Positions 1,681-34,180 of a stretch of 48,777 nt of DNA are shown piece after piece (position 1 is the first letter of the stretch; every line of letters starts with the position of its first letter). The DNA is from Methanoregulaceae archaeon (GTDB lineage Archaea; Halobacteriota; Methanomicrobia; Methanomicrobiales; Methanospirillaceae). The notes beneath the pieces are model-generated. The model ran no database searches and was not told where the DNA came from. It saw only the letters and a list, made by a program, of their open reading frames with translations. The DNA lies in NCBI GenBank assembly GCA_028679325.1, contig JAJRBS010000171.1:1-48777 (forward strand), given 5' to 3'. The translations under genes and the position numbers were made by a program.

Positions 1681-2145
1681 TCAGATCAGGTGGCTCGCGA
1701 TGTCGCGGGTGATCTTCTGGTCGCAGTAGAGACAGTGGAGACCTTCGGGCAGCACCTCGAAACGGGACAAGATGGGCTCGTTCGTGTTCGAGATACAGCC
1801 GGGGTTCGGGCATCGTACCACGCCGGTCAGGAGCCGTGGGATCTCGACTCCTTTTTTCTCGAAGACCTCGTAGTTCCGGATGATGTTGATCGATGCCTTG
1901 GGGGCGATGAGGGCTATCCGGTCCACCTCCTCCTTCCGGAGTTCACGGTTCACGATCTTCACGATATCCTTCTTCCCCACCTTTCCCGACTTCACATTGG
2001 TTGCCACGGAGATCGACTCGGTTGTGGCCCCGGTTATGCCGATGATCTTCAGCACGTTCAGGGCCTCGCCACCGGTTATATGGTCGATCACTGTCCCGTT
2101 CTCGATGGGGCTGATGAGAAGCCCATCCCGTGCATCGCGTTTCAT
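1681..2145 (-). CDS. pyrI: aspartate carbamoyltransferase regulatory subunit
   Basis: 154 aa. N-terminal I.NGTVIDHI motif and a C-terminal Zn-binding Cys quartet (CPNPGC...CLYC). Its start overlaps the pyrB stop. Confidence 0.95.
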   Translation of the reverse strand: MKRDARDGLLISPIENGTVIDHITGGEALNVLKIIGITGATTESISVATNVKSGKVGKKDIVKIVNRELRKEEVDRIALIAPKASINIIRNYEVFEKKGVEIPRLLTGVVRCPNPGCISNTNEPILSRFEVLPEGLHCLYCDQKITRDIASHLI

Positions 2146-3041
2146 CAGGGCATCACCTTCAGCAGCATAGCCATCCGGACCGGGATCCCGTTCCGGGACT
2201 GGTCGAAGTACCGGGCCTGCGGGAGCCGATCAACCCGGGGGTCTATCTCGTCCAGCCGGGGAAGGGGGTGGAGCACTACCAGACGCTCCTTTCCCCGGGC
2301 CAGGAGTTCGGGAGTGACACGGTAACTCGAGGCCACCTGGAAGTAGGAGGACGAGTCCGGGAAGCGCTCCCTCTGGATACGGGTCACGTACAGCACGTCA
2401 AGGTCGGGGATGGCTCTTGAGACGTCTGCATGCTCCCTGACGTCTGTTCCTCCCCGCCGGAGCTCGTCCACGATTGAACCCGGGAGCTCGAGGCCCTTCG
2501 GCGAGATGATGTGGAGGGTCGCCCCATAGAGGGAGAGGGCATACGCCAGTGAATGGGCCGTCCTCCCGTAGCGGAGATCGCCGAGCAGGCCGACAGAGAT
2601 ACCTGAAAGAGGCATCGACTGCCGTATGGTGTAGAGGTCAAGAAGGGTCTGGGAAGGGTGCTGCCCGGCCCCGTCCCCGGCATTGATCACCGGGACGGCC
2701 GAGAACTCGCTTGCCAGCCGGGCCGCTCCTTCCTTCGGATGGCGCAGCACAATGGCGTCTGCATAGCCGCTGACTACACGGATGGTATCGGCCAGCGTCT
2801 CGCCCTTGGACATGGAACTCGCTTCCACGCTGTCGAGCCCGATCGAACATCCACCCAGGCGGGCCATGGCCGCCTCGAAAGACATCCGGGTGCGGGTGCT
2901 CGGTTCGAAGAAGAGGAGGGCCAGGATCTTCCCGGAGAGAGCTTTTCCGGGGTGCGGCCCGGCATCGAGTTTCGCTGCCTGGTCAAGGAGTTTGTCGATG
3001 GACGGCCGGTCCAGATCGCGTATGGAGATGATATGGTTCAT
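2145..3041 (-). CDS. pyrB: aspartate carbamoyltransferase catalytic subunit
   Basis: I chose the internal ATG at 3041 (MNHIISIRDLDR...). Motifs: EPSTRTR, GQHPSQ, HPLPR. It is coupled to pyrI by a 1-nt overlap: the last base of the pyrB stop codon is the first base of the pyrI ATG (position 2145). Confidence 0.95.
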   Translation of the reverse strand: MNHIISIRDLDRPSIDKLLDQAAKLDAGPHPGKALSGKILALLFFEPSTRTRMSFEAAMARLGGCSIGLDSVEASSMSKGETLADTIRVVSGYADAIVLRHPKEGAARLASEFSAVPVINAGDGAGQHPSQTLLDLYTIRQSMPLSGISVGLLGDLRYGRTAHSLAYALSLYGATLHIISPKGLELPGSIVDELRRGGTDVREHADVSRAIPDLDVLYVTRIQRERFPDSSSYFQVASSYRVTPELLARGKERLVVLHPLPRLDEIDPRVDRLPQARYFDQSRNGIPVRMAMLLKVMP

Positions 3042-3170
3042 GGATGCCCCGGACTGGCAGGTGAACGGGCCGGCCGGGTCGCCCCGGTACCCGGGCCCTT
3101 GCCTGTGTACAGGTAGGAGCTGCACCTTTTTGAGGCTATTGGATGGACGGAGGAAGGGATACGGAACATG

Positions 3171-4667
3171 TCAGCAGCCGACCAGCCGGACCGCAGAACT
3201 CCCCGTGAGGAGAAGGTTCCAGGCCTTGCGCCGGGGATTGTACCGGACGAGGACACCGCGAAGTTCGACCACGGCGGCGTAGGGCACGGACAGGAGCGTC
3301 TTGTTCGACCCGGTCACGTGGTAGCGGGGGAGGATAGCGTAGGCCGTCCCGGAAGCATCGCAGAGGAGGAAGACATGGTTCTCCCGGTCGCCGAGGTCTC
3401 CGGATATGACGGCTGCGGTAAGGTTGATCCTCTTCCCCGCGTGCTTCCGGAGAGACGAGAGAGGAGGGGAGGGTGAGTGCACCGTGACCGGGGCCGCACC
3501 CGCATCTTCCTGCTCCCGGACCAACACCGCGTAACTGAATTTAATATCCGTATTCTCGAACCTGAAGGCCTCCTTCTCTCCGGACAGTGCTCGCATGAGC
3601 CGTGTCGGCCGGATGGAGGGCTTTTCAAGGAAACTCCAGCAGGGCCCGGCCCGGCAGCTTCCGGCCCTGAGGAACCGGCAGGGGTCCCGGACGGTAAGAC
3701 TTTTTCCAGCGGCGGCCCGGACCGTTTCCCTGAGCGAGATCGAGTTGTCCTTGTCGGCGGGCTCGATGAGCGCCATGCATCCGCCGGGGACGAGAAGCCG
3801 GGAGAGCGAGGAGATTATCCTGACCTTCTCGGGATTCCCGCCCGGGAGCTCGTTGAGCACGTTCTGCAGCACCACAAGGTCCACAGATGTTGGGAGGAGG
3901 ATCTCCTCCAACTCGCGGAGGTCCCCCCTGACCGGAGGGTGGATCGCGACTCTTCCGCCGGTGCAGCCGGGCACAAGCCGGTTATAAGCATCGATGAACT
4001 CCTCTGATCGTTCGAGAGCAAAGACCTCGGCGGATAGCCCGGGTAGGTCCTGCAGGAGCCCGGAGAGTGCCAGGGGGACGATCCCAGGACCGGCCCCGAC
4101 ATCGAGGACCCTGATGGTATTCTGGACCAGTCCCTGCCGGATGAGCCGCAAGAAGAGGTGGGAGAACTGGAAGTAGGTGACCGGGGACTGGTAGGCGAGA
4201 TAGGCCAGGACCGCGTACCCCTTCCGGTAACCGATCCTCCGCTCGTCCCCTCCCCGCCAGTACTGGCTCTTCTGCTGCATCACCGAGGCCCGTATCCTCT
4301 GGAGGGTGACCGGGTCGTCCCACGTTTTTCCGGTCTTCATGCCGATGTACTCCTCGATGAGCCGCTGGATGCCTTCGGGGAACTCCCCGGCTGTCAGCCG
4401 GTTTTCGAGCTTTGAGAGGTCCCGTTCGTCGGTCGTAAAAAGACCTGCCCGGGGTATCCGGTAGATGGTGATCCGATCCCTCTCCCCCCGCCAGCCGAGG
4501 CTGAGAAGAGAGAGGGAGGGCAGGAGGGACCGGAGAAGGGCGGGAAGATCTGCGTCCTGATGCAGGGCGTCACGAAAATCACGGAGCGGGAACGACTCCT
4601 TTCCTTCCGAAAAATCCGAAAGTTCCTGCAGGAACGGATCCCGGGTCATGGATATGTGGTGGAACAC
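3171..4667 (-). CDS. class I SAM-dependent methyltransferase, Rsm22-like, with a C-terminal ~110-aa extension
   Basis: 498-aa ORF. It has SAM motif I (VLDVGAGPG), the preceding AYLAYQSPVTYFQF segment, and a downstream Cys cluster (CRFLRAGSCRAGPCW), as in Rsm22/COG5459 proteins. An alternative start is the ATG at 4649. Confidence 0.6.
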   Translation of the reverse strand: MFHHISMTRDPFLQELSDFSEGKESFPLRDFRDALHQDADLPALLRSLLPSLSLLSLGWRGERDRITIYRIPRAGLFTTDERDLSKLENRLTAGEFPEGIQRLIEEYIGMKTGKTWDDPVTLQRIRASVMQQKSQYWRGGDERRIGYRKGYAVLAYLAYQSPVTYFQFSHLFLRLIRQGLVQNTIRVLDVGAGPGIVPLALSGLLQDLPGLSAEVFALERSEEFIDAYNRLVPGCTGGRVAIHPPVRGDLRELEEILLPTSVDLVVLQNVLNELPGGNPEKVRIISSLSRLLVPGGCMALIEPADKDNSISLRETVRAAAGKSLTVRDPCRFLRAGSCRAGPCWSFLEKPSIRPTRLMRALSGEKEAFRFENTDIKFSYAVLVREQEDAGAAPVTVHSPSPPLSSLRKHAGKRINLTAAVISGDLGDRENHVFLLCDASGTAYAILPRYHVTGSNKTLLSVPYAAVVELRGVLVRYNPRRKAWNLLLTGSSAVRLVGC

Positions 4668-4751: not shown

Positions 4752-6809
4752 ATGCCGGAGGACAGGCCGGAAGGCCGGGAACTGATGACCGAAGACCAGG
4801 GGTATGCCCTTCTCGAACGGTTCGGGATCCCTGTCCCGCGGTTCATGGTCGCCACCGGGATCGAGGAGGCCTTCAGAGGTGCGGACCGAATCGGGTACCC
4901 GGTCGTCCTGAAGGTGGTGTCACCGGATGTCATCCACAAGAGCGATATCGGCGGTGTGGCTGTCCATATCGCCGGGCAGGAAGCGTTGAAGGAGGCGATG
5001 ACCCGGATGAAGGCCGACCTTGCCCGGAACATGCCGTCGGCGACGATAAAAGGCTTTCTTGTCGAGCAGGAGATGCCTCCCGGTCTTGAGCTCTTTATCG
5101 GCGGGAAGACCGATCAGGCCTTTGGAAAGGTCCTCTCATTCGGGCTTGGCGGAACAGCCATCGAAGTGTTCAGGGATATAGCTCTCCGGGTTCTTCCCTT
5201 CGGAAGCGAGGGTATAAGGTCCATGATCCGGCAGATCCGCGGATACCCGCTCATCGCCGGCCACCGCGGAAGCCCACCGCTCGACGAGGAAGCGCTGGAA
5301 AGAACCATCGAATCGGTGATCAGGCTTTTTTTATCCGATGAACGGGTCGCTGAGTTCGACATCAATCCGGTCGTCCTCTATCCCCGGGGAGCGTGTGCGG
5401 TCGACGCCCGGATCTATCGATCGCATGATGTCCCTCCCAGGAACGCGGCCCGTGAAGAGGTTGGCCCGGGGCTCTTTCATCCCCGGTCCATTGCGGTGAT
5501 CGGTGCCTCCTCTGACCCGAAGAAGATCGGGTATTCGGTCTTTTCCAACCTCCTCCCCTTCCCCGGGCCCCTTTACCCGGTCAATCCCGGCCGGGCCGAG
5601 ATCCTGGGAAGGCCGGCTTATGCCCGGGTATCAGATATCCCGGGCCCGGTGGATACGGCGGTTATCGCTATCCCGGCCCCGGCGGTTGAGGGAGTGATGG
5701 AGGAGCTCGCCGCTCACAAGACACGTCTGGCGATCATCATCTCGTCAGGGTTCAGCGAGACCGGGCGCGAAGGAAGGGAACGGGAGGAGAGGATCCTCGC
5801 CATCGCCAGGGCAGCAGGCATCAGGGTCATCGGGCCGAACTGTCTCGGCATCGTCCTCCCGCACGAGGATATCAACACCACCTTCGACCCGGTCACCCCC
5901 CTGAAAGGAAACATCGCGTTCATCTCCCAGAGCGGAGCCGTGATTACCACCATTGTTGACTGGAGCGTTCCCGAAGAGATCGGGTTTTCAGCGGTCATCT
6001 CTGTCGGGAACCAGATCGACCTCGACTTTATCGACTTCCTGGAGTTTGCCGGAAGCCAGCCTGAGACCCGGGCGATCATCCTGTACATCGAGGAGATAAA
6101 GGACGGTCGGGCTTTCCTTGACGCGGTACGGGAGATCACAAAGACAAAGCCAGTCATCGTCCTCAAGTCAGGTTCCTCGGCAATCGGGAAGAGGGCCGCC
6201 GCCTCCCACACCGGGTCACTAGCCGGCGACTTCGAGGTTTATCTGTCCGCTTTCCGACAGGCGGGCGCTACCCCGGTCTTCTCGATCCTTGAGACCTTCG
6301 ACCTTGCCAAGCTGGTGGTGTGGCAGGGGTATCCGGAAGGGAAAAGGGCGGTGGTGATCTCTGCCGCCGGGGGCTTTGCAGTCCTGGCCTCGGACTATGC
6401 CGAACGGTACCATGTCGGACTCCCAGCCCTCAGTCCGCGGCTCATGGAGGAGCTTGACCGGTTCCTCCCGCCTATCTGGAACAGGGCAAACCCCATGGAC
6501 ATCATCGGTGACGGGGATGCCGAACGCTACGCCAGGGTCTTTGACACTCTTCTCCGGTTCCAAGACGAGTGGGATATAGCGGTGGTCATCGCTGTACCGT
6601 CGGCAGTCATCAATGCCGTCGACCTCGCACGGGAGATGGTGCGTTTTTCACGGAGTACCGAGAAGGTCACCATCGGCTGTTTCATCGGAGGAGACTCCAT
6701 GAAGGAGGGGATCGGGATCCTCCGCTCCCACCACATCCCCAATTACGATGATATTGACAGCGCCTTCCGGGCACTGGGAAGGAGCATCGCCGGTCATGAT
6801 AACCGGTGA
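4752..6809 (+). CDS. acd: acetyl-CoA synthetase (ADP-forming) / acetate--CoA ligase family, with beta(ATP-grasp)-alpha(CoA-binding) fused in one chain
   Basis: 685 aa. The N-terminal ATP-grasp part reads LLERFGIPVP...GYPVVLKVVSPDVIHKSDIGGV. It is followed by a CoA-binding Rossmann part (PRSIAVIGASSDPKKIGYSVF) and the phosphohistidine loop ASHTGSLAG. An alternative start is at 4785. Confidence 0.85.
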   Translation: MPEDRPEGRELMTEDQGYALLERFGIPVPRFMVATGIEEAFRGADRIGYPVVLKVVSPDVIHKSDIGGVAVHIAGQEALKEAMTRMKADLARNMPSATIKGFLVEQEMPPGLELFIGGKTDQAFGKVLSFGLGGTAIEVFRDIALRVLPFGSEGIRSMIRQIRGYPLIAGHRGSPPLDEEALERTIESVIRLFLSDERVAEFDINPVVLYPRGACAVDARIYRSHDVPPRNAAREEVGPGLFHPRSIAVIGASSDPKKIGYSVFSNLLPFPGPLYPVNPGRAEILGRPAYARVSDIPGPVDTAVIAIPAPAVEGVMEELAAHKTRLAIIISSGFSETGREGREREERILAIARAAGIRVIGPNCLGIVLPHEDINTTFDPVTPLKGNIAFISQSGAVITTIVDWSVPEEIGFSAVISVGNQIDLDFIDFLEFAGSQPETRAIILYIEEIKDGRAFLDAVREITKTKPVIVLKSGSSAIGKRAAASHTGSLAGDFEVYLSAFRQAGATPVFSILETFDLAKLVVWQGYPEGKRAVVISAAGGFAVLASDYAERYHVGLPALSPRLMEELDRFLPPIWNRANPMDIIGDGDAERYARVFDTLLRFQDEWDIAVVIAVPSAVINAVDLAREMVRFSRSTEKVTIGCFIGGDSMKEGIGILRSHHIPNYDDIDSAFRALGRSIAGHDNR

Positions 6810-7178
6810 CCAGCGGGGATCTGGCCGAGCCATTGAACCTCCCGGTTCAGACTTCCAACCTTTTCATTCAGGGAAAAAACCACTGTGATAGGCCCAATTT
6901 ATATGCCAGGCCATGAATTCTTTTTTCGGTGGAGAAGGTCCGGGTACCAGGGTACTTCGCTTAAGAAGGGAACAGGCGGGGCGGGTATCCTGTTCACCCG
7001 GAACCGGGCTCCCCCGTAGTGGCAGAGACATTTTGGTCCTGCCGTCCATGCACCAAACATCCAATGCCCACATCCTATCACCGGGGACGGAACCCGGAAG
7101 AGACCAAAAGAAGCAAGGGGGTTTTGCACCGGTCTTTTCCGGCCCGTCCCGGCTCCATACATCCGGGCCGGTAACCGG

Positions 7179-9716
7179 TTAGTAATCCTCGAAGACTTCG
7201 TAGTGCCCTGATTCTATTCTCATGGAGTGATAGAGGTCAAGCGCAGCTATCACCTCTTCTATACTCGGGTACCGGTCATTCGGATTCTTCTCGAGACATT
7301 TCCTGGTGATATGATCGAGAGGAAAGGCAAAGGGGTTCAGGAGGGAGGGATCATGAGGTTCATCGGAGATGATCCTCGCGCTCACCTGGTTGATGTCCCC
7401 TCCGGAGAAAGGCAGTTCTCCGGTGAGAAGCTCGTAGAAGACAACACCGAGCTGGTATATATCGGTCCTCTGGTCTGTCTCTCCAAATTTCCCGGGCGAG
7501 ATCTGTTCAGGTGCCGCATAGGAGAGGGAGAACCCGGTAATGGTGGGGAGCAGGCATGCTCCCATCACCTTGCTCATTCCCCAGTCTGTGATCTTCGGGA
7601 CTCCTTCGGGGGTCATCAGGATGTTCTGGGGCTTGATGTCACGGTGGATGATTCCCTGGGAGTGGGCATAGGACAGCCCGGAAGCGATCCCCCTGATGAT
7701 CCTGGCTGCTTCATCGGGTTGCACCGGTTTCTTCAGGTCGGCGAGCGATCGCCCGATATACTCCATCTCGATGTAGGGGACGGGCAGGATATTTGCCTCC
7801 CTTATGGATACGATATTCTCGTGCCTCAGGTCTTCCCATGCTTTTATCTCCTTCATGAAACACTTGCCGGCCGTATCATTGAAATGGACCGGGATCTTGA
7901 GCGCCACCTCTTCACCGGTCGCTGCCTTCTCTGCCTTGAAGACCCGGGCGATACCTCCCATACCGATCAGTTGCGGGACGGTGTACCTGTCGCAGAGTTC
8001 TTGCGGAAAACTGTCCGGGACCGGGGCCGGCCTCCCTGGGACGATTGTCGCGTCAGGAGGTGGAGTCCCGGTCCCGGTATCACCGTGGGGACTTCCGGTG
8101 AATGGCAGCCCTGACAGGCCGAAGGCAAGGAATTCCCACCGGGCAGCAAGTCCGCCTGCCAGCGCTGAGGCGAAGGTGAGGGCGAGGGGGATCCTGACCT
8201 CGGGCGGACTCCCGATGAGGGCGAGAGCCGCGGAAAAAGCGCAGACCAGCGAGAAGAAGATGTGCCCGCCGAGTGTCCACCGCAGGGGGTGGGCGAGGAG
8301 CGCCCCGGCAAAGAGGACCAGGCTGGATACGATGAGGTAAACCGAGACCGGGAGGATGATGAAAGAGAACGGTGAGATTGGCTGTCCGTCAGCGGCGAGG
8401 CTGTTGAAGATGAAGAGCCCGGCAATCAGACCGCCGGCGATGAGGCCGTAGGCCGCGGTCAGGATCCCGCGTTCCCGGGCAGGGATGGTCAGGACCCCGG
8501 CCGGCCGGCGGAACAGGTCGATCACCACCAGCACGCTGCAGATACCTCCCATCACCGGGAGGAACGGGAAGCCCGGGAAGTTTCCAAATAGCGGCGGCAA
8601 CCCGGTTGTATTACCGGGAGGTGTCGTCGGAGCCGTTGTTACCGGGAGTGTCGTTGGCGGCGTGGTGCTGAATGGAGTTGTGGAGGTGGTTGGACGGGAT
8701 GTCCAGGGCCGGGTGGTAGCCGTGGTTGTGGGGATGGTGGTGCCGGTCGTGGTCTGGCCGGTCGTGATATTGGTGGTTGGTATGGTGGTGGTGACGGTTG
8801 TGGTCGGAATGGTGGTCGTAACCGTGGTCTGGCCGGTCGTGATATTGGTGGTTGGTATGGTGGTGGTAACGGTTGTGGTCGGAATGGTGGTCGTCACCGT
8901 CGTGGTCGGTTTGGTAGTCGTCGGTTTGGTAGTGGTGACGGTTGTGGTCGGAACGGTCGTCGGAATGGTGGTCGGGACAGTCGTATGAACGGTTGTTGGA
9001 ACAGTCGTCGGAATGGTAGTGGGGACAGTGGTGGGAACCGTGGTTGGTACGGTTGTCGGAACAGTCGTCGGAATGGTAGTGGGGACAGTGGTGGGAACTG
9101 TGGTTGGTACGGTCGTCGGAACAGTTGTCGGAATGGTGGTCGGGACGGTTGTTGGCACCGTTGTGGGAACGGTCGTTGTCGGAGTTACGACGGGGGGAAG
9201 GACCACCAGGGGGACAACAGTCTGGCCTCCCTCGTCCACCGTGACATCGATCTGCACCGTCTGGTACCCGGCCAGGACAAACCGCAGGGTATGGAGACCG
9301 ACACCGACATTCTCGATGGTCAGGCCGCCCTGGTCCGGGATGGTGCCCGAGAACTGATCGTCGAGGTATACCCTGGCGCCCGAGGGGTCCGAATCGACCT
9401 GCAGGGAGCCTGTCATCCTGGTGAACCGGGCATAGATCATATGGTCGTCGTGGACAGGGGGGAAGGTGTAGACGGGGATGGCACCGATCGAGGCTCCATC
9501 GACGACGACCGAACTTATCCGGAACCCGGTTGCCGGGGTGATGGAGAAGAGTGGGGTTTCGCCTGTCTGGACCGTCACCAGCCCCGAAGGATAGATGGAT
9601 CCCCCGTACCCTGCACCTGCATTGATGGTGAAGTCCTTGGCTTCGACAGACACCACAAGGAAGATCGAAGTAAAGAGCAGAACGATAAGAATGCCGGAAT
9701 ATCGTATCCCCGTCAT
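7179..9716 (-). CDS. receptor-like Hanks-type Ser/Thr protein kinase: signal peptide, beta-rich module, PEGA domain, ~200-aa Pro/Thr-rich linker, ~5 TM helices, cytoplasmic kinase domain
   Basis: 845 aa. The kinase subdomains are visible: GMGGIARVF (G-loop), VALKIP, HRDIKPQNIL, ITDWGMSK (a DWG variant of DFG), YAAPEQ. PEGA-like segment: GSLQVDSDPSGARVYLDDQF...LAGYQTVQIDVTV. N-terminal signal: ILIVLLFTSIFLVVSVEA. The TM count is by eye. Confidence 0.9.
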   Translation of the reverse strand: MTGIRYSGILIVLLFTSIFLVVSVEAKDFTINAGAGYGGSIYPSGLVTVQTGETPLFSITPATGFRISSVVVDGASIGAIPVYTFPPVHDDHMIYARFTRMTGSLQVDSDPSGARVYLDDQFSGTIPDQGGLTIENVGVGLHTLRFVLAGYQTVQIDVTVDEGGQTVVPLVVLPPVVTPTTTVPTTVPTTVPTTIPTTVPTTVPTTVPTTVPTTIPTTVPTTVPTTVPTTVPTTIPTTVPTTVHTTVPTTIPTTVPTTTVTTTKPTTTKPTTTVTTTIPTTTVTTTIPTTNITTGQTTVTTTIPTTTVTTTIPTTNITTGQTTTGTTIPTTTATTRPWTSRPTTSTTPFSTTPPTTLPVTTAPTTPPGNTTGLPPLFGNFPGFPFLPVMGGICSVLVVIDLFRRPAGVLTIPARERGILTAAYGLIAGGLIAGLFIFNSLAADGQPISPFSFIILPVSVYLIVSSLVLFAGALLAHPLRWTLGGHIFFSLVCAFSAALALIGSPPEVRIPLALTFASALAGGLAARWEFLAFGLSGLPFTGSPHGDTGTGTPPPDATIVPGRPAPVPDSFPQELCDRYTVPQLIGMGGIARVFKAEKAATGEEVALKIPVHFNDTAGKCFMKEIKAWEDLRHENIVSIREANILPVPYIEMEYIGRSLADLKKPVQPDEAARIIRGIASGLSYAHSQGIIHRDIKPQNILMTPEGVPKITDWGMSKVMGACLLPTITGFSLSYAAPEQISPGKFGETDQRTDIYQLGVVFYELLTGELPFSGGDINQVSARIISDEPHDPSLLNPFAFPLDHITRKCLEKNPNDRYPSIEEVIAALDLYHSMRIESGHYEVFEDY
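8751..8900. repeat. 75-bp tandem repeat x2 inside the kinase Pro/Thr linker
   Basis: 8751-8825 and 8826-8900 differ at 2 of 75 positions by my alignment. The unit encodes a 25-aa motif (TTVTTTIPTTTVTTTIPTTNITTGQ). Confidence 0.9.
9001..9120. repeat. 60-bp tandem repeat x2 (with degenerate flanking copies) inside the kinase Pro/Thr linker
   Basis: 9001-9060 and 9061-9120 differ at 2 of 60 positions. The unit encodes 20 aa of the TTVPTT[VI]P type. More diverged copies lie on both sides (about 8940-9190). Confidence 0.9.
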
Positions 9717-9738
9717 GTTTCCCGGTCCTGGTCGCTTT

Positions 9739-10527
9739 TCAGGAATTTTCAGGCAGGATCACCAGCAGGCGGGCACCCTTCGCCCCTTTTCCGAGCTCAA
9801 GGAGGTCTCCGTCATGCAGGACAGCCGGCTGCCGCTTGTAGAGCTCAGTGCTGTTCAGGTAGGATCCCCCGCTGCTCCCCCTGTCCTCGAAGTAGTAGTT
9901 TGGCCCCTCCTTCTTGAAGACACCGTGGGGTTTGGTGACGCGGGAGACTGATGAATATTCGGCTGAGAGCACGATGTCGGAGACCGGTTCCTGCCGGGAG
10001 GGAGCGAGGGTATCGATCCTTCCGATACGGGTCTCCAGGCTCTCGAGAATGAAGAGTTTCCCGTCATCAGAACCCCCGAGGATGATGACCATGGGATTAT
10101 TCCCGGCAATCTCGCTATCGACTGCCTCCCGCACCTCCTCGAGTTTCTTCTTCAGTTCTGCATCATTGATATTGATTCGCATATTGGAGAAAATGCCGAG
10201 GTTCCTGACCACTGCTTCCATGGCTCCCGGGACGAGCGAGTATTTCCAGACCGGGTGGACCCCCTTTGATGTCTGCTGGCCGAGTCCGACCTCTTTCCTG
10301 ATAAGGCCCATGGCGATCAGTTTGTCGAGATGTTTCTTGGTGTTCTCGTAGCTCGTGTTGATATCGGATGCTATCATCCGGACATCCTTGGGCTTTTTCT
10401 CAAGGATCTTCAGGATCTTCAGCCGCTGGCTGTTGGAGAGCACTTCGAGGTACTCCGAGAGCTCGTTGTAATAGTCGGGGACCTGATCGAGTACAATTGT
10501 GTGGGCTTCCTCGCGATGCTCTGCCAT
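9739..10527 (-). CDS. transcriptional regulator: ArsR-like winged-helix N-domain fused to a C-terminal FHA (phosphothreonine-binding) domain
   Basis: 262 aa. wHTH: LSNSQRLKILKILEKKPKDVRMIASDINTSYENTKKHLDKLIAMGLIRKE. FHA-like: FILESLETRIGRID...DIVLSAEYSSVSRVTKPHGVF...EDRGSSGGSYLNS...LHDGDLLELG. These correspond to the canonical GR / SR-H / GS-NG-N / GD-G positions. It ends 22 nt upstream of the kinase start. Confidence 0.75.
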   Translation of the reverse strand: MAEHREEAHTIVLDQVPDYYNELSEYLEVLSNSQRLKILKILEKKPKDVRMIASDINTSYENTKKHLDKLIAMGLIRKEVGLGQQTSKGVHPVWKYSLVPGAMEAVVRNLGIFSNMRININDAELKKKLEEVREAVDSEIAGNNPMVIILGGSDDGKLFILESLETRIGRIDTLAPSRQEPVSDIVLSAEYSSVSRVTKPHGVFKKEGPNYYFEDRGSSGGSYLNSTELYKRQPAVLHDGDLLELGKGAKGARLLVILPENS

Positions 10528-10604
10528 AACCGACTGCCTCCGGTTAAGGAAAGTTTGACCTTATGGAACAAAAACATTCTCCGAAAAGCGAGGTCATATA
10601 ATTG

Positions 10605-10616
10605 AACCTGCAGGTT
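10605..10616. promoter_or_regulatory. perfect 12-bp palindrome AACCTGCAGGTT next to a TATA-like element, upstream of the wHTH-FHA gene (candidate operator)
   Basis: Read directly from the sequence. It lies 78-89 nt upstream of the ATG at 10527. The minus-strand AATTATATGA (10593-10602) sits immediately downstream of it, toward the gene. Confidence 0.3.
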
Positions 10617-10774
10617 AAACACTTAAAATTGATTATTCCGGCTGCCTTTTCTTTCCCGGACCGCGCCGGCCGGGAATTCAGATACTCAAAAGCACGGATC
10701 GCCCGGCTGCGTCCTGCAATGGATAGCTCAGATCACATATCTACCGTTCGGAACAAGGTCAGGAAAAAAGGATT

Positions 10775-12394
10775 TCAGGAGAATGCCGATCCGATGCTGC
10801 CGAAATCCGGTGTCATCATCACCAGGACCACGGAAACATCCCCGTGGTGAACGGTTACCGTCCGGCTGCTGCTCCGGTACCCGGGCAGAGTGATGTTCAC
10901 GGCATGAGTCCCCGGAGGAACCGAAGTGATGAGTTTCGGTGTCATACCTCCGGAGATGTCATCGATGGACAGCGTACAACCGAACGGGACGGTATAGATG
11001 AAGAGCGCCCCGTTTGCCGGGTATCGCGTATCTGGTCCCGGGGTAGGAACTGCTGTCGGAGGTTGGGTCTCTGCTGCATCTTCTGACAGTTCGAGATTAA
11101 GCTTGGGGGTGACCGACACTCTACCCATCCCGATGTTCACCACCAGGGTCTGAGACAGGTAGCCTTGCCGCGACAGGGTTATTGTCTGCATCCCTGTGGG
11201 AACATTCTCAATGACCTCGTTCGACCTCCCCCATTCCTTTCCCTGAATCACGACTGTGGCCGTGGGGTCTGATACAACAAAAACTCCTCCGGTTCCTGCA
11301 GGTGAGGGAGAGGGTTCCGGGGTCGGTGTCGGACTGGTCGTGACAGGTGCAGTCGTTGGGACAGTAGTGGGAATCGTGGTCGCTGCAGTTGTCGGGACAG
11401 TCGTGGTTGCGGTTGTGGGGATTGTTGTCGGGACTGTTGTGGCAGCCGCTGTCGGGGTTGTCGTTGGGATAGTGGCAGGAATCGTTGTAGGTGCCGTGGT
11501 TGGAACGGTAGTGGCAGCGGTGGTCGGAGTTGTCGTGGGTATGGTGGTAGGGACAGTGGTGGCAGCGGTGGTCGGAGTTGTCGTGGGTATGGTGGTAGGG
11601 ACAGTGGTGGCGTCGGTAGTCGGAGTTGTCGTGGGTATGGTGGTAGGGACAGTGGTGGCAGCGGTGGTCGGAGTTGTTGTGGGTATGGTGGTAGGGACAA
11701 TGGTGGCAGCGGTGGTGGGGACGGTGGTCACCGGGGGATCCACGGGAGTGAGGACAACCGGGGGAACAACTGTCTGCCCCCCTTCATCTACGGTGACATC
11801 GAACTGCACCGTCTGGTACCCTGCCAGAATAAACCGCAGGGTATGGGGGCCGATAGGGATGTCCCCGATAGTCAGGCCGCCCTGGTCAGGGATGGTGTCC
11901 GCGAACTGGTCGTCAATGTAGATCCTGGCCCCGGCCGGATCAGATGCAACGTACAGCGATCCGGTCATCCGGACAAACCGGGCATAGATCATGTGGTCGT
12001 CACGGACCGGGGCAAAAGTATAGACCGGGACTGATCCCACCGGAGATCCATCGATGACCACCGAACTGATCCGGAATCCCTGGGAAGGGGTTATGGAAAA
12101 GAGGGGTGTATCCCCCGATTGCACGGTCACCAGACCCGAAGGCTGGATAGATCCGCCATATCCTGCCCCCGCATTGATCTGGTGGTCCTTCGCCCCGGAA
12201 ACCGCCGGAAGGAAGCTCGCCACCAGGATGACTGCAAGGAGCAGGGCCCGGAATTGTGTTCCCGGAAAAGGTCCGTTCCGGGGCTTCCCGGGGCTCTGGC
12301 GGCCGGACAGGACTCGTAAGTATGCTGTATGCTCGTGGAAAATGGAGAACCCGGCGGGTAGAATTCTCACCAATTTTTTTGGATGCGCTGCCAT
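10775..12394 (-). CDS. secreted or membrane-anchored surface protein: paralog of the kinase ectodomain, plus a Pro/Thr-rich linker and two further PEGA-like domains
   Basis: The hydrophobic signal/anchor FRALLLAVILVASFLPAVSGA is followed by KDHQINAGAGYGGSIQPSGLVTVQ...GSLYVASDPAGARIYIDDQF.... C-terminal PEGA-like segments: GGVFVVSDPTATVVIQGKEW... and NGALFIYTVPFGCTLSIDD...LPGYRSS. The start is uncertain: ATG at 12394, while the track ORF extends to 12463. Confidence 0.8.
   Translation of the reverse strand: MAAHPKKLVRILPAGFSIFHEHTAYLRVLSGRQSPGKPRNGPFPGTQFRALLLAVILVASFLPAVSGAKDHQINAGAGYGGSIQPSGLVTVQSGDTPLFSITPSQGFRISSVVIDGSPVGSVPVYTFAPVRDDHMIYARFVRMTGSLYVASDPAGARIYIDDQFADTIPDQGGLTIGDIPIGPHTLRFILAGYQTVQFDVTVDEGGQTVVPPVVLTPVDPPVTTVPTTAATIVPTTIPTTTPTTAATTVPTTIPTTTPTTDATTVPTTIPTTTPTTAATTVPTTIPTTTPTTAATTVPTTAPTTIPATIPTTTPTAAATTVPTTIPTTATTTVPTTAATTIPTTVPTTAPVTTSPTPTPEPSPSPAGTGGVFVVSDPTATVVIQGKEWGRSNEVIENVPTGMQTITLSRQGYLSQTLVVNIGMGRVSVTPKLNLELSEDAAETQPPTAVPTPGPDTRYPANGALFIYTVPFGCTLSIDDISGGMTPKLITSVPPGTHAVNITLPGYRSSSRTVTVHHGDVSVVLVMMTPDFGSIGSAFS
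11511..11702. repeat. 48-bp tandem repeat x4 inside the Pro/Thr linker of the surface protein
   Basis: Copies start at 11511, 11559, 11607 and 11655. Copies 1 and 2 are identical; copies 3 and 4 have 3 and 2 mismatches. The unit encodes 16 aa (TTPTTAATTVPTTIPT). Confidence 0.9.
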
Positions 12395-12529
12395 AGTGTC
12401 CAGACTCCCGTTAAGAAAAACAGAGCAATGGGATATAATTTCTGAAGGAGGGATGCAGATCATACAACGTCCAGGTTAGCTGAACGGCCCCCGTACCCTG
12501 GCTCCAAACCCTGCAGTTCGGACAACAGC

Positions 12530-14527: not shown

Positions 14528-15391
14528 TCAGGAGCTCTGGCCGGCAATGAGCACAGGTCTCTTCGCCCGTTTCGCCACCATGTATGCCGTGCTCCCGAGG
14601 ACCATCTCCCGGACGCGGCCATGCCCGTGCCTCCCCATGACGATCAACGAGACATCTTCATTCTCGGCTAGATGGATGATCTCATCTGTCGGGCTTCCCA
14701 GGTGCACCACAACCTCTGCCTCTTTCCCGGCCCTCTTCAAGCCTTCGGCGATTGCCTCCAGCCGGTGCTGTGCAGTCTCCATCGAGATGTCGATCTCCTC
14801 TTTTGTCTCCCCGCGGGTGACGACGTGCAGGAGGATCACCTTCCCCAGACCTTCGAGACCTTCAAGGATCGGCACGACCGCTGAGGCGTGATCTGAAAAA
14901 TCTGTCGGGAAGAGGATTTTTGAAAATATCCCTGGGCACAATTTCTCATATTTCGGCCCCTTGGGCAACTCCACCACCCGGTTCCGGATGATCAGGACAC
15001 CTCCCCTGGTCCCCTGCAATACCCCCTTTGAGACACTTCCGAGGAGTACCCTGCTGACGAGCCCTTTTCCCCTGGCGCCGGTGACAATGAGGGAAACCTC
15101 CTCCTCTTTTGCTACCCTTACAATGGTCTCTGCAACATCTCCTGTGGTGATGACCTCTACCCGGACCCGTGAGTCGATCCCGGACAGAAGGAGATGTTTC
15201 TTCTGATTTTCAAGTTCTTTCTCGGAGTCTTTGATGGCGTTATCAAAAACCCACCCTCTCTTGGAGGGGTGGGTGGCATCGACGACATTGAGAAGGATCA
15301 CCTCATGTACACCAGGCATTTCGGAGACACATTCCAGACTGGCAGAAGAATAGGGGGAGAGGTCCGTGGCAAACAACACCTTTGAGAACAT
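14528..15391 (-). CDS. tandem universal stress protein (two UspA domains)
   Basis: Two repeats of the pattern [KILFxTDxS...ILLxVV...SLIVxGxxGxGxxxxxxLGSxxxxV]. I chose the internal ATG at 15391 (MFSKVLFATDLS). Confidence 0.85.
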   Translation of the reverse strand: MFSKVLFATDLSPYSSASLECVSEMPGVHEVILLNVVDATHPSKRGWVFDNAIKDSEKELENQKKHLLLSGIDSRVRVEVITTGDVAETIVRVAKEEEVSLIVTGARGKGLVSRVLLGSVSKGVLQGTRGGVLIIRNRVVELPKGPKYEKLCPGIFSKILFPTDFSDHASAVVPILEGLEGLGKVILLHVVTRGETKEEIDISMETAQHRLEAIAEGLKRAGKEAEVVVHLGSPTDEIIHLAENEDVSLIVMGRHGHGRVREMVLGSTAYMVAKRAKRPVLIAGQSS

Positions 15392-15645
15392 GCGGCAACC
15401 TGATGACATATCTGCATCTCTTGAATTCAAATTTGTCCTCTTTTCCCGGAAAGGAAAAATACAGAGTGAAGATAAAAAATTTCATGATTAATCATTACAA
15501 AAATTAAAAGCAGTATTTTTTAAAACAGAGCAATTATTGAGTATATTTTGAGAAAAATCCGTCCTTTACGGGTTTCTGCCATCAATGTTTTTTTATAGGG
15601 GGAACGACAATTGTCCAATGCCTGTAAAGGCGGATGGAATTCGGC

Positions 15646-16473: not shown

Positions 16474-16803
16474 TCAGGAGACTTTTTTCAATATTTCCTT
16501 CGCCCGGCCAACCCCCTCTCCCTCCAGCCGGTCATCTCTCTTGATATCCTTTCCTATCCGGATGAGACCATCGATGTCAGCCCTTGAGAGCCGGGTAAAA
16601 GAGCACTGTTCCCAGTCCTGCCGGACCATGAATACCCAGCACTCCCCAAGGATGAATTTGACCATCTCTATGTCGAGTGCCGAGTAAAGTTTCCAGTCCT
16701 GCCCAAGGTTCCTCCGGATCTTTTCCATTGCCGATTCCACGGCACGGTCCCTGTGGACCTGGAAGATCCTCCGTCCCCGTTCCTCATCGGTCACTTCAGG
16801 CAT
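16474..16803 (-). CDS. small conserved hypothetical protein, translationally coupled to atpD (the tenth gene of the A1AO operon)
   Basis: Its ATG (16803-16801) lies inside the sequence ATGCCTGA, which also contains the atpD stop (8-nt overlap). The 109-aa product, MPEVTDEERGRRIFQVHRDRAVESAMEKIRRNLGQDWKLY..., is paralogous to the 15646..15969 product. Confidence 0.8.
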   Translation of the reverse strand: MPEVTDEERGRRIFQVHRDRAVESAMEKIRRNLGQDWKLYSALDIEMVKFILGECWVFMVRQDWEQCSFTRLSRADIDGLIRIGKDIKRDDRLEGEGVGRAKEILKKVS

Positions 16804-17455
16804 AGGAACCTGCCGTTTCAGTTTTTTTCTTCTTTCGCTCGATGATCTTTTTCACCTTCTTCAGGCGGTAAAGATCTTCGCGGTCACGTTCATCGATGGT
16901 GATCTCGATGTACTTCGCCTGCCTCCGGAGCTCAGGGATGAGAATCTGTTCGAGGGCGTTCACTCTCCTCCGGGTCATCTGGATCTCGTTTCCCACCCTC
17001 CGGAGCGCGGTCTCGGTCTCGGCGAGGGAGATGATGAGGTCCAGTTCAGCCTCGAATTTTTCAGCCGTCTCGTCTATCCGGCCGCTGACCCCGAGGATGC
17101 TGTATCCGCGTTCAAAGAGACTCTTCACAAACCTCCTCTTCTCGATGATCGGAACCGGCACCCCCATGATATTCTTTCCCTTGATATCAAGGGTTATACC
17201 CTGTCTTGTCGCAAAGGAGGCAGATTTGAGGGTCACGGGATCATCGATGGCCATGGCGATCAGGAGGCTGTGCTGGGCGGCATTCGAGAGCTTCTCGAGC
17301 TGGTCCCGGGACATCGAGACGGTCTCCATGATATGAAAAAATTCCCGGATGAGGGCGTCCATTTTCTCCCGTAAGAGATCCCGCCCCTGCTCGGCCAGTT
17401 TTATCTGGGCATTCTTCTTGATAAGTTCCATCCGGGTGGGATTGATCTGCTCCAT
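16796..17455 (-). CDS. atpD: A-type ATP synthase subunit D
   Basis: 219 aa. MEQINPTRMELIKKNAQIKLAEQGRDLLREKMDAL... is the typical V/A-ATPase D coiled coil. Its operon position after atpB fits. Confidence 0.95.
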   Translation of the reverse strand: MEQINPTRMELIKKNAQIKLAEQGRDLLREKMDALIREFFHIMETVSMSRDQLEKLSNAAQHSLLIAMAIDDPVTLKSASFATRQGITLDIKGKNIMGVPVPIIEKRRFVKSLFERGYSILGVSGRIDETAEKFEAELDLIISLAETETALRRVGNEIQMTRRRVNALEQILIPELRRQAKYIEITIDERDREDLYRLKKVKKIIERKKKKTETAGSYA

Positions 17456-17459
17456 TCCT

Positions 17460-18857
17460 TTACTCCTTGCGGTGGGTGGGGTGATACTTCTGGATATAGT
17501 CCCGTTTGATCCTCTTCAATTCATCCTCGGGAAGGGTGGCAAACAGGTGCCATCCGATGTCAAGGGTCTGGCTGATGGTCCGGTTCTCGTCACCCTGGGT
17601 GATGAACTGCCTTTCGAAATCATCGGCAAATTTCAGGTACTTCTTATCGAGCTCGGTCAGTGCTTCCTCCCCGACTATGGCGACGAGCCTTCTTAAGTCT
17701 CTTCCATAAGCATACGAGGCGTAGAGCTGGTCGGCCACATTGCGGTGATCTTCCCGGGTCTTCCCGGGGCCGATACCCAGATTCATGAGACGTGAGAGGC
17801 AGGGGAGGGCGTCGACCGGAGGATCGGCACCGCGACGGAAGAGGTCCCGGGAAAGGACGATCTGTCCTTCCGTGATGTAGCCGGTGAGATCCGGTACCGG
17901 GTGGGTGATGTCATCATCAGGCATGGTCAGGATGGGGATCTGTGTGATGGATCCCTTACTTCCCTTGACCCTCCCTGCACGTTCGTAGATGGAGGCCAGG
18001 TCGGTGTACATGTATCCCGGATAGCCCCTCCTCCCCGGGACTTCTTCCCGGGCAGTGGAGATCTCACGAAGTGCCTCGCAATAGTTGATCATGTCGGTCA
18101 GGATGACCAGCACGTGGAGGTCGTGGGTATATGCCAGGAACTCCGCCGTGGTCAGTGCGACCCGGGGGGTAGCGATCCGCTCGATTGTCGGATCGTCGGC
18201 AAGGTTCATGAAGAAGACCACCCGTTCCAGAGCGCCGGTCCTCTCGAAATCCTTCATGAAGAACGAGGCTTCTTTATAGGTGATTCCCATGGCGACAAAG
18301 ACCACAGCAAACTTCTCCTCCTCACCGAGCACCCGGGCCTGGCGGGCGATCTGGGCCGCCAGCTTGTTGGCCGGGAGCCCGGCACCTGAGAAGATGGGGA
18401 GCTTCTGACCCCGTACCAGCGTGTTAAGGCCGTCTATGGTTGACATCCCGGTCTGGATGAAATCCGCCGGAGTGTCCCGGGCGGAAGGATTGATGGGCAT
18501 ACCATGGATGTCAAGGTTCGCCTCTTCCATGATCTCCGGGCCTTTGTCCCGTATCTTGCCCACGCCATCAAAGATACGGCCCAGCATGTCGACAGAGACA
18601 CGTATTCTCGGAGGCTCCCCCGTAAACCGGACCCGTGTCTTCAGGGTATCGATGCCGCTTGTGCCCTCGTATACCTGGACGACAGCCATATCCTTCGAGA
18701 TGTCGAGGACCTGCCCTGTCCTCTCATCGCCGTTCGGCGTAACGATCCGGACGACCTCACCGTAGGAGACCCCTTTCACGTTCTGGACAAATATCAGCGG
18801 GCCTGAGACATACCCGACGGTCCTGGACTCCTTGGAATACAGCGGTGTTCCGGTCAT
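17460..18857 (-). CDS. atpB: A-type ATP synthase subunit B
   Basis: 465 aa. Regulatory-subunit signature segments: [37 protein letters not shown]. It has a 4-nt overlap with atpA. Confidence 0.97.
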
Positions 18858-26638: not shown

Positions 26639-27184
26639 ATGGCTGATTTTTACCCTTACCTGGTTGCAAGCTTCCCTATGCTTCACTTCGGCATGAAACC
26701 GCCATTTTCGTTTGAACGATTTTTAGGGGAATGCCAGCCTTTTATGCCGGAGAAGGACTTCAAGATCCTGAGCACCCTGCCGCTGCCGGAGGAGTACCAG
26801 GAAAGAGAAGAAGAACACCCGCTCGTCCGGCACTGGATCGAATTTGATACGGCCCTGAGAAACGAGCTGGTCCGGACTCGCGCCGCCAGAATCCGGCGGG
26901 ACCCTGCTGCATATAGCCTTGCCGGAATTTACGGCGATTCCTCCCTCGGCCCGGCAGTCATGGCTGCAGGCACAAACAGCTCTCTCTCCGGTGCAGAAAA
27001 GGCCCTCGATGAACTCCGCTGGAAAAAACTCGATGATCTGGCCACGGGCCATTATTTCGACCTGGACTTTCTGATAACTTTTGGTTATAAGCTCATGATC
27101 CTCGAGCGCTGGGAGCGGATCCGGACAGCGGATGGGCGGATCCTGCTTGAACAGGTTCTGGCAGGGGGAACTGCGATACAATGA
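26639..27184 (+). CDS. DUF2764-like protein (the short ORF that sits between E and A in minimal bacterial V-type ATPase operons; possible C/d-subunit substitute)
   Basis: 181 aa. The N-terminal YPYLVASFPMLHF motif resembles, from memory, the YYLVSSLPxL start of DUF2764 proteins. Its position between E and A, and the 4-nt overlap with atpA, support co-translation. Confidence 0.55.
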   Translation: MADFYPYLVASFPMLHFGMKPPFSFERFLGECQPFMPEKDFKILSTLPLPEEYQEREEEHPLVRHWIEFDTALRNELVRTRAARIRRDPAAYSLAGIYGDSSLGPAVMAAGTNSSLSGAEKALDELRWKKLDDLATGHYFDLDFLITFGYKLMILERWERIRTADGRILLEQVLAGGTAIQ

Positions 27185-28917: not shown

Positions 28918-28918
28918 C

Positions 28919-34020: not shown

Positions 34021-34180
34021 GTGTAACTCCCTGGGAAATATCCCGGACCCGGCCGCATCAGGCGGTATCGGGGCAGCAGACAATAGATATTATCTGCGAT
34101 ATTTAATGATATCCTGTTTTCCTGTCGCCTGTGAAACTTTTATTTCGTTCCGTGCTAACATGTAGCATAATTTATGGGAG

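Follow-up and report, generated by a model that had tools for sequence, protein, structure and literature searches.

Gene organization of the locus

The 48,777-nucleotide (nt) sequence analysed in this study, hereafter referred to as the window, is derived from contig JAJRBS010000171.1 of a Methanoregulaceae archaeon (assembly GCA_028679325.1). On its minus strand, it contains a gene for a regulator that combines a winged helix-turn-helix (wHTH) domain with an FHA domain (positions 9739-10527; 262 amino acids, aa) and, directly downstream, a gene for a receptor-type Hanks kinase (7179-9716; 845 aa). A third minus-strand gene, which precedes the regulator gene (10775-12394; 539 aa), encodes a PEGA-domain protein that is secreted or signal-anchored. 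The list of open reading frames (ORFs) placed the three genes exactly where a preliminary description of this DNA had located them, and the 22-nt distance given there between the stop codon of the regulator gene and the ATG of the kinase gene is exact. The domain assignments of that description were also borne out by Pfam searches, in which Pkinase, FHA, HTH_5 and PEGA were all detected in the expected proteins. These assignments include a complete Hanks kinase domain, the fusion of a winged helix to an FHA domain, a PEGA/Pro-Thr-rich upstream protein, Pro/Thr-rich linkers and an ectodomain shared by the upstream protein and the kinase, all of which are described below. Searches of the three proteins against NCBIfam yielded domain-level, sub-threshold matches only.

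For comparison, we used a set of 85 related loci, in which ORFs were called and searched with the domains encoded in the window. Paralogs of the ectodomain were surveyed in 80 species-representative loci, for which up to 6 kb of the upstream flank was fetched. Residue conservation was determined with 70 orthologues of the kinase and with an alignment of 18 sequences of the regulator.

The wHTH-FHA regulator

The AlphaFold2 (AF2) model of the regulator consists of a disordered tail (residues 1-16), a winged helix (residues 17-98), linker helices (residues 102-141) and a beta-sandwich (residues 146-257). The wHTH domain (10234-10479) shows a helix-helix-helix-wing arrangement in the model and contains an HTH_5 match at residues 33-78 (E = 8.6e-7; 29.2 bits versus a cutoff of 22). 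The stretch corresponding to the recognition helix, T58-SYENTKKHLD-x-L70 (TSYENTKKHLDxL), is invariant across the family. No metal-binding Cys/His motif of the ArsR/SmtB type is conserved in the regulator alignment, and the NCBIfam HTH_metalloreg score of the regulator is 30.3 (cutoff, 55). The Pfam architecture is HTH_5 plus FHA only, with no match to BTAD or Trans_reg_C. Cys pairs and a zinc-ribbon match were likewise not found in the regulator, nor was a vWA gene in its neighbourhood. In the databases, relatives of this protein are named only as 'FHA domain-containing protein' or 'ArsR family regulator'.

The FHA domain (9757-10092; residues 146-257) was identified by Pfam (residues 167-246; E = 6.9e-10; 39.6 bits versus a cutoff of 20.7), by alignments of hidden Markov models (HMMs) and by Foldseek. 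Foldseek ranked GarA and OdhI highest (E = 2e-7; target TM-score, 0.73-0.87) and also retrieved Rad53, FhaA and EmbR (2fez, 2ff4). Only the FHA part of the regulator aligns with EmbR 2fez, and the NCBIfam OdhI score is 20.5 (cutoff, 200). A profile search of sequences in the PDB retrieved 1uht, Rad53 FHA1 and GarA. The phosphothreonine-binding residues G169-R170, H201 and N225 are invariant, and position 198 is always Ser or Thr; the register of the S-x-x-H motif, T198-K-P-H201, was set by the HMM alignment to 1uht. The FHA domain thus looks functional and is predicted to be a phosphothreonine reader.

In the N-terminal tail, which is otherwise variable and has a predicted local distance difference test (pLDDT) score below 50, Thr10 (codon at 10498-10500) is invariant within the motif T-[ILVM]-[IV]-x. 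This residue is a candidate phospho-acceptor of the regulator.

The receptor kinase

The Hanks-type kinase domain (7251-7985; residues 578-822) was detected with a score far above the Pfam cutoff (E = 2.9e-43; 148.6 bits versus 31.7) and contains a G-loop (GMGGIARV), VALK (K607), HRDIKPQN, DWG and APE. The DWG motif is a variant of DFG in which the Asp is retained. Because K607, HRDIKPxN, DWG, APE and the activation-loop residue T727 are invariant or nearly so among the orthologues, the conservation of these residues argues for the kinase being an active enzyme. The best NCBIfam match of the kinase domain is the PknB/Stk1 PASTA kinase model (207 bits; cutoff, 450).

The N-terminal part of the protein comprises a signal peptide (9642-9716; residues 1-25) and an ectodomain (9207-9641; residues 26-170), for which AF2 predicted two beta-sandwich domains (pLDDT, 96.7; 26 sequences). 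The first is an InlB-B-repeat-like domain of ~75 aa, and the second is a PEGA/CarboxypepD_reg-like domain. Between the N-terminal module and repeats of the protein P0357, identity is 39-42% (E down to 2e-14), and these repeats in turn match PF18998 (divergent InlB B-repeat, Flg_new_2) at 1.3e-25; the isolated module itself gave no direct match to PF18998 even at E values of up to 10. A sub-threshold Spore_YtfJ match obtained in Pfam scans of the isolated N-terminal and membrane modules was judged to be spurious. Pfam detected no PEGA domain in the window kinase itself, and this assignment rests on the paralogous upstream protein (78% identical) and on orthologous kinases carrying PF08308. The preliminary description had proposed a module of ~150 aa plus a PEGA domain; the shared region is real, but its ~145 aa consist of one B-repeat-like and one PEGA-like domain. 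Foldseek searches with the ectodomain returned generic adhesin, CnaB and carboxypeptidase-regulatory folds only, without any clue to a ligand. A homologue search with the isolated 149-aa ectodomain was empty, as the word index is too insensitive for such a fast-evolving domain, and the relatives of the kinase were recovered with the full-length protein as a query.

The ectodomain is connected to the membrane by a Pro/Thr-rich stalk of ~208 aa (8583-9206), which is encoded by repeat units of 60 and 75 nt arranged in tandem. When the Pro/Thr linker of the PEGA protein (11439-11728) is included, the linkers at this locus are encoded by tandem DNA repeats with periods of 24, 48, 60 and 75 nt. The length of the stalk varies among near-identical strains, whose kinases are 845, 840 and 838 aa long, and this strain-to-strain difference indicates that the repeats expand and contract. 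The stalk is probably glycosylated. At the Pro/Thr linker, gene callers sometimes end the kinase prematurely and predict spurious ORFs on the opposite strand; for example, the kinases of loci L001 and L002 are annotated as 456-aa proteins in public records, whereas their intact ORFs encode 877-879 aa. Long Gly/Val-rich ORFs lie antisense to the Pro/Thr linkers at positions 8485-9357 and 11256-11921 of the plus strand of the window and at positions 9167-9994 of L001, and these ORFs are repeat artefacts.

The stalk is followed by a five-transmembrane (5-TM) module (8133-8582; residues ~379-528) for which the isolated-module scan detected no Pfam family. Hydropathy analysis of the window protein placed the hydrophobic segments at residues ~383-401, 417-438, 449-473, 483-503 and 507-528, of which the last is weaker; all five are clear in a hydropathy profile averaged over 38 orthologues. 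The module is conserved in the clade, with the motifs PLRW and ARW. The mean numbers of Lys plus Arg residues are 0.34, 0.45 and 0.55 in the predicted outside segments (before TM1, loop 2-3 and loop 4-5, respectively), compared with 2.9, 1.2 and 1.95 in the predicted inside segments (loop 1-2, loop 3-4 and after TM5). Because five TM segments are present and the distribution of Lys and Arg obeys the positive-inside rule, the predicted topology is N-out and C-in, which puts the kinase domain in the cytoplasm, as the preliminary description had reasoned from approximately five helices counted after a signal peptide.

Between TM5 and the kinase domain lies a juxtamembrane linker (7986-8132; residues 529-577) that is variable in sequence (median length, 46 aa). 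It contains a median of 5 Thr residues, and at least one Thr is present in 70 of the 70 orthologues. This linker is a candidate docking site for the FHA domain, which may be created by autophosphorylation.

Conservation of the regulator-kinase pair

Clustering at 90% identity yielded 626 homologues of the regulator, which, where named, belong to Methanoregulaceae, Methanolinea or Methanoregula, and relatives are present in 294 species-representative genomes. Methanolinea mesophila, a species in culture, is among the hits. In all of the 85 loci with sufficient downstream DNA, a Pkinase ORF directly follows the regulator gene on the same strand. The apparent distance between the two genes ranges from an overlap to ~100 nt, a spread that arises because the longest possible start was used, and the kinase ORF is split or frameshifted in a few loci. 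This arrangement of regulator and kinase is far beyond chance, whereas that of all three genes is not. Of the trio noted in the preliminary description, the conserved unit is the regulator-kinase pair, to which the PEGA gene does not belong, and the regulator and kinase genes look like a two-gene operon.

The pair is located in a conserved core synteny with genes for V-ATPase, endonuclease V and acetyl-CoA synthetase (ACS) and with pyrBI, and it appears to have been vertically inherited across the family. The combination of a B-repeat plus PEGA ectodomain with a 5-TM module is common to the clade containing the window (the window clade) and the Methanolinea clade. The kinases of the Methanoregula clade, however, have a NosD/beta-helix ectodomain and approximately one TM helix. 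The pair has thus been retained while the sensor part was swapped between clades, and the genomic context changes as well. Sequence divergence is also uneven within the window clade: identities are 39-48% for the ectodomain, ~70% for the kinase domain and 78-85% for the regulator. The ectodomain at 9207-9641 is 39-48% identical to those of L006-L008, which represent the closest other species, whereas the regulator is ~84% and the kinase domain ~70% identical. The sensor surface evolves rapidly and is possibly under diversifying selection.

An exhaustive profile search for distant relatives of the regulator identified 52 clusters at E values below 1e-30. At the Methanospirillaceae locus L092, two wHTH-FHA paralogs are encoded 4 kb apart (1965-3621 and 6001-8550); one of them adjoins a gene for a 581-aa Hanks kinase on the same strand, and the gene after the other encodes a PP2C phosphatase. 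In Methanobrevibacter sp. DSM 116169, the regulator gene is divergent from an FHA-kinase-Metallophos cluster, and in a Bathyarchaeota genome, it is convergent with the gene for a 1353-aa kinase-WD40 protein.

Conserved elements upstream of the regulator gene

Two conserved cis-elements emerged when the sequences preceding the regulator gene were aligned. One is the promoter-like motif AGAATGTTTTTG (10569-10580, minus strand), which is located 42 nt upstream of the regulator ATG and is unique in the window. In its general form, AGAAT[GA]TTTTTG, a single copy of this motif is present in each of 29 loci, always 37-43 nt ahead of the ATG. Its position fits a promoter followed by a short leader with GGAGG, and AGAATGTTTTTG may represent a B recognition element (BRE)/TATA-like promoter or a second regulatory element.

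The other element is an inverted repeat, (T)AACC-TGCA-GGTTC (10604-10617), located ~90 nt upstream of the regulator ATG. In 32 of the 85 loci, the 200 nt ahead of the regulator gene contain a site of the form AACC-N4-GGTT, compared with a background frequency of 0.0057 per 200 nt (27 sites in 945 kb). The arms of the palindrome, (T)GAACC-N4-GGTTC(A), are conserved, and its spacer varies. Its distance from the regulator gene is conserved as well, at 85-89 nt for the window clade and, for most sites of the Methanoregula clade, 105-146 nt. At L092, 12.8 kb of sequence contain two sites only, one ahead of each regulator paralog. The palindrome accompanies the regulator gene in three separate lineages. 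Across the whole window, the 13-nt palindrome is not enriched (23 matches versus 13.2 +/- 4.4 expected, with one mismatch), indicating that the signal is positional and not global. These findings suggest that TGAACC-N4-GGTTCA is a candidate operator of the regulator, and because a copy lies upstream of the operon's own promoter, autoregulation would be implied.

The PEGA protein is a young paralog of the kinase ectodomain

The PEGA protein contains three PEGA matches (E = 1.7e-23; 82.7 bits in total) and is composed of a region resembling the kinase ectodomain, followed by a Pro/Thr linker and two additional PEGA domains. Its N-terminus and that of the kinase share 70% identity in a stretch of 164 aa (E = 1e-73), a value that rises to 78% when only the 145 aa of the mature region are compared. 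Because the latter value far exceeds the 39-48% identity to the orthologous ectodomains, the comparison indicates that the protein is a recent lineage-specific duplicate of the kinase ectodomain or, alternatively, a product of gene conversion. It is uncertain where translation starts, a question that concerns residues 1-45 and the adjacent DNA at 12395-12463: the hydrophobic segment is preceded by an extension of ~45 aa at the N-terminus, which is ~74% conserved in L093, compared with 89% for the ectodomain.

None of the 80 species-representative loci contains a second ectodomain-like ORF in the upstream flank of up to 6 kb; the gene directly upstream of the regulator gene in such loci is that for endonuclease V. 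The PEGA paralog is present only in L086-L089, L093/L094 and L095, and the complete trio only in contigs whose regulator is 96-100% identical to that of the window, i.e. in strain-level relatives. The gene order at L095 (3-3538) is a regulator paralog (75% identical), a PEGA gene that overlaps it by 4 nt and a regulator orthologue (85% identical). This order suggests that the PEGA gene may have originated from a tandem duplicate of the regulator-receptor unit that lost its membrane and kinase parts.

At positions 10764-10769 (minus strand), 5 nt past the PEGA stop codon, there is a run of six T residues that resembles an archaeal terminator and may terminate the PEGA transcript. Because this T6 run and the regulator's own conserved promoter region intervene, the PEGA gene is set apart from the regulator-kinase pair and is probably a separate transcription unit.

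A putative convergent transcription unit downstream of the kinase gene

The kinase gene adjoins the gene for an ADP-forming ACS (4752-6809). In the intergenic region between them, a second, exact copy of the palindrome, GAACC-TCCC-GGTTC, is present at positions 6835-6848. Most of the palindromes that had been counted as background represent this second conserved position, 325-730 nt past the kinase stop codon, which is shared by the window clade and the Methanolinea clade; the latter lacks the site upstream of the regulator gene. In the window, the TATA-like sequence AATTTATAT (6896-6904, plus strand) follows ~40 nt after the palindrome, and a conserved start, GGTGGAG (6928-6934, plus strand; GGTGAGGCATG in some loci), follows ~25 nt after the TATA-like box. 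The order of palindrome, TATA-like box and GGTGGAG or GGTGAGGCATG is common to 15 loci. These elements define a tentative, unannotated unit on the plus strand (6893-7180) that runs toward the 3' end of the kinase gene and is a possible target of the regulator.

In ten loci of the Methanolinea clade (L020, L023, L025, L027, L029-L032, L034 and L035; e.g. L025, 9612-9913 on the minus strand), the downstream 260-317 nt align well, with frame-breaking indels. This alignment yields a consensus fold with a terminal 5'/3' helix in which 93.5% of the cells are paired. Nine pairs show compensatory changes, compared with 3.7 +/- 1.4 in shuffled alignments (none of 500 reached 9) and 2-5 in slid controls, although this evidence is only moderate because the structure was derived from the same small alignment. 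The ~300-nt region of the Methanolinea clade is noncoding, as judged from the frame-breaking indels, and is a candidate for a new structured RNA. Searches of Rfam with the window and two other loci at gathering and permissive thresholds identified no family for the intergenic region; a ceN53 match at E = 0.25 was judged to be due to chance. RNAalifold found no consensus structure in a mixed-clade alignment, whereas the alignment of the Methanolinea clade alone folds. Because an nhmmer profile of the ten sequences did not detect the copy in the window and the folding z-score of this copy is only -1.9, our claim for the window is limited to the arrangement of palindrome, TATA-like box and start.

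We also considered small proteins in this region, namely an 89-aa ORF (6913-7182) in the window and ORFs of 77-89 aa in L025 and L027. We rejected this reading because the ORFs show no sequence relationship to one another and because the frame is disrupted by 1-nt indels among close relatives.

Comparison with characterised kinase and FHA systems

By its architecture, the closest characterised analogue of the window pair is EmbR (Rv1267c)/PknH (Rv1266c) of Mycobacterium tuberculosis. In both cases, the gene for a regulator with a winged helix and a C-terminal FHA domain directly precedes that for a receptor Hanks kinase; embR lies upstream of pknH in one operon, and EmbR needs its FHA domain, which docks on phosphorylated PknH, in order to interact with the kinase and to be phosphorylated by it (PMC9239209). 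However, EmbR belongs to the SARP family and contains an OmpR/PhoB-type winged helix and a central BTAD domain, whereas the window regulator has an ArsR-like wHTH domain followed by two linker helices and lacks BTAD. In addition, the sensors of PknH and the window kinase are unrelated, and the organisms belong to different domains of life. The resemblance is one of architectural analogy, not orthology, and represents a convergent architecture. The window module looks like an uncharacterised archaeal counterpart of PknH-EmbR that is built on an ArsR-type winged helix.

GarA and OdhI of Actinobacteria, which gave the best FHA matches, resemble the window regulator in possessing a disordered N-terminal tail with a conserved Thr. 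In GarA and OdhI, Hanks kinases phosphorylate this tail Thr, to which the FHA domain of the same protein then binds. In contrast to the window regulator with its wHTH domain, GarA and OdhI lack a DNA-binding domain and regulate metabolic enzymes. The ArsR/SmtB family shares with the window regulator the winged-helix fold and the HTH_5 match, and operators of this family also use TGAAC-type half-sites in inverted repeats. The input of ArsR/SmtB proteins, however, is a metal site, whereas that of the window regulator would be the FHA domain, no metal motif being visible. The window kinase resembles PknB/Stk1 in being a receptor kinase with an extracellular sensor, but it has no PASTA domains and carries a five-TM module and a B-repeat/PEGA ectodomain on a Pro/Thr stalk.

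The FHA regulators characterised in archaea, ArnA and ST0829 of Sulfolobales, combine a zinc ribbon with an FHA domain, are under the control of Hanks-type kinases and affect the transcription of archaellum and DNA-damage genes (PMC5007285, PMC10470591). ArnA differs from the window regulator in having an N-terminal zinc ribbon and the vWA protein ArnB as a partner; its kinases are not encoded by adjacent receptor genes, and its hosts belong to a different phylum. The Ser/Thr kinase (STK) and FHA components encoded at euryarchaeal ESCRT loci (PMC11188069) constitute a different system. We found no description of a wHTH-FHA/receptor-kinase operon in archaea, including methanogens, in a literature search whose coverage was incomplete, so that this absence is not proof. 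The caution on novelty voiced in the preliminary description was fair in this respect, with embR-pknH as a close bacterial precedent.

A model for transmembrane phospho-signalling and its alternatives

On the basis of the domain identities, conserved residues, topology, linkage and cis-element conservation described above, we consider it fairly probable that the pair is a two-gene operon encoding a one-step transmembrane phospho-signalling relay. The receptor would display its B-repeat-like and PEGA-like domains on the long Pro/Thr stalk, anchored by five helices and connected to a cytoplasmic kinase. We infer the signal, the phosphotransfer and binding steps, the phospho-sites and the DNA target of this relay as follows. 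A signal from the envelope or cell surface may be sensed by the ectodomain, the membrane module or both, upon which the kinase would autophosphorylate on Thr, at T727 and/or in the juxtamembrane linker. The FHA domain of the regulator would dock on the resulting phosphothreonine, and the kinase would then phosphorylate the regulator, most likely at Thr10 of the disordered tail. This may change the oligomeric state or DNA binding of the regulator, either by an EmbR-like recruitment or by a GarA/OdhI-like self-binding of the phosphorylated tail. The regulator is predicted to bind TGAACC-N4-GGTTCA, thereby autoregulating the operon and controlling the convergent unit.

Several points weigh against this model. 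Because the loci come from related genomes and are not phylogenetically independent, fewer independent observations underlie the comparison than the locus counts given above suggest. Intermediate clades (L016-L051) lack the exact palindrome ahead of the regulator gene, although the recognition helix is identical there; therefore, either not all clades autoregulate the operon or the palindrome is a site for a different factor. Confidence in the AF2 model of the regulator is only moderate (pLDDT, 74; other four models, 54-62), and the model is uninformative on communication between the domains. No PP2C or Metallophos phosphatase gene was found in the window. Furthermore, for regulators of the EmbR type, phosphorylation observed in vitro may not be seen in vivo (PMC9239209).

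The preliminary description had proposed a one-step relay from a surface kinase to a DNA-binding FHA protein as part of a three-gene module, in which the secreted PEGA paralog would act as a co-receptor, a decoy or a ligand trap. For the regulator and the kinase, the relay is supported by linkage, conserved residues, topology and the palindrome; its extension to three genes is not. The position of the paralog directly upstream on the same strand, its 78% identity to the kinase ectodomain and the retention of the arrangement in strain-level relatives are what such a module would predict, and the 4-nt overlap at L095 indicates that coupling of PEGA and regulator genes is possible. However, the absence of an upstream ectodomain-like ORF from every species-representative locus surveyed, the separation of the PEGA gene by the T6 run and the regulator's own promoter elements, and an identity pattern that points to recent duplication or gene conversion and not to a long-standing partnership make it quite unlikely that the trio functions as one module. 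The alternative that the regulator is an adaptor or scaffold for the kinase or envelope machinery, comparable to FhaA/FipA or ArnA, with the winged helix serving for protein contacts, also appears unlikely. In its favour, adaptors are frequent among prokaryotic FHA proteins, the ArsR-type domain is matched with a modest score only (HTH_5, 29 bits; NCBIfam, below the cutoff) and some clades lack the exact palindrome ahead of the gene. Against these points stand the invariance of the recognition helix across the family, an HTH_5 score that exceeds the Pfam cutoff and an inverted repeat, conserved in its arms but not in its spacer, that accompanies the gene in three separate lineages.

The kinase domain also matches the PADLOC models PD-T4-6 and mad6 (E about 1e-56), and the wHTH domain matches Csa3/CasR models, which raised the question of a kinase-type system for anti-virus defence or abortive infection (PD-T4-6, MADS or BREX-PglW-like). 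This reading was rejected, and we regard it as extremely improbable, because no match extends beyond the generic kinase or wHTH domain and because the pair is part of a conserved core synteny and appears to be vertically inherited. The NCBIfam scores are far below the cutoffs (MAD6, 138 versus 460; PglW, 66 versus 990), and no defence or partner genes are adjacent.

Other genes in the window

The window also contains a minus-strand set of genes for the A, B and D subunits of an A/V-type ATPase (16796-20590) and a second, more divergent pair of A-like and B-like ATPase genes on the plus strand (27181-30217), together with genes for weak V_ATPase_I-like proteins at 22997-24946 and 30823-32586. 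A gene for an AMP-forming ACS (40489-42408) is convergent with a histone-deacetylase-family gene (42476-43381), and universal stress protein genes, in tandem, are present at 14528-15430 and 33154-34083.

Biological implications

Ser/Thr signalling in archaea is known mainly from the archaellum network of Sulfolobales, and for methanogens, we found no characterised pathway in the literature that leads from a receptor Hanks kinase to a transcription factor. The locus described here provides a compact, conserved and testable candidate for such a pathway, with a kinase, a predicted phosphothreonine-reading regulator, Thr10 and a candidate operator. More tentatively, wHTH-FHA proteins might constitute an archaeal class of 'response regulators' for Hanks receptor kinases, in which each has its own co-encoded kinase with exchangeable sensors, the FHA domain reads the phosphothreonine of the kinase, and a TGAACC-N4-GGTTCA operator controls the protein's own operon and the ~300-nt RNA. 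We consider this generalization possible but doubtful; if it is true, wHTH-FHA/kinase pairs would be the Ser/Thr equivalent of two-component systems.

The logic of the proposed relay will not surprise specialists, but the module is uncharacterised and occurs widely among methanogens of environmental importance. Within Methanoregulaceae, which are abundant methane producers of wetlands, peat and digesters, the family is widespread, and the isolate names of the matching metagenome-assembled genomes refer to fen, SPRUCE and anaerobic reactors. The swapping and fast evolution of the sensors suggest that the module has been adapted to differing envelope or environmental cues in these organisms.

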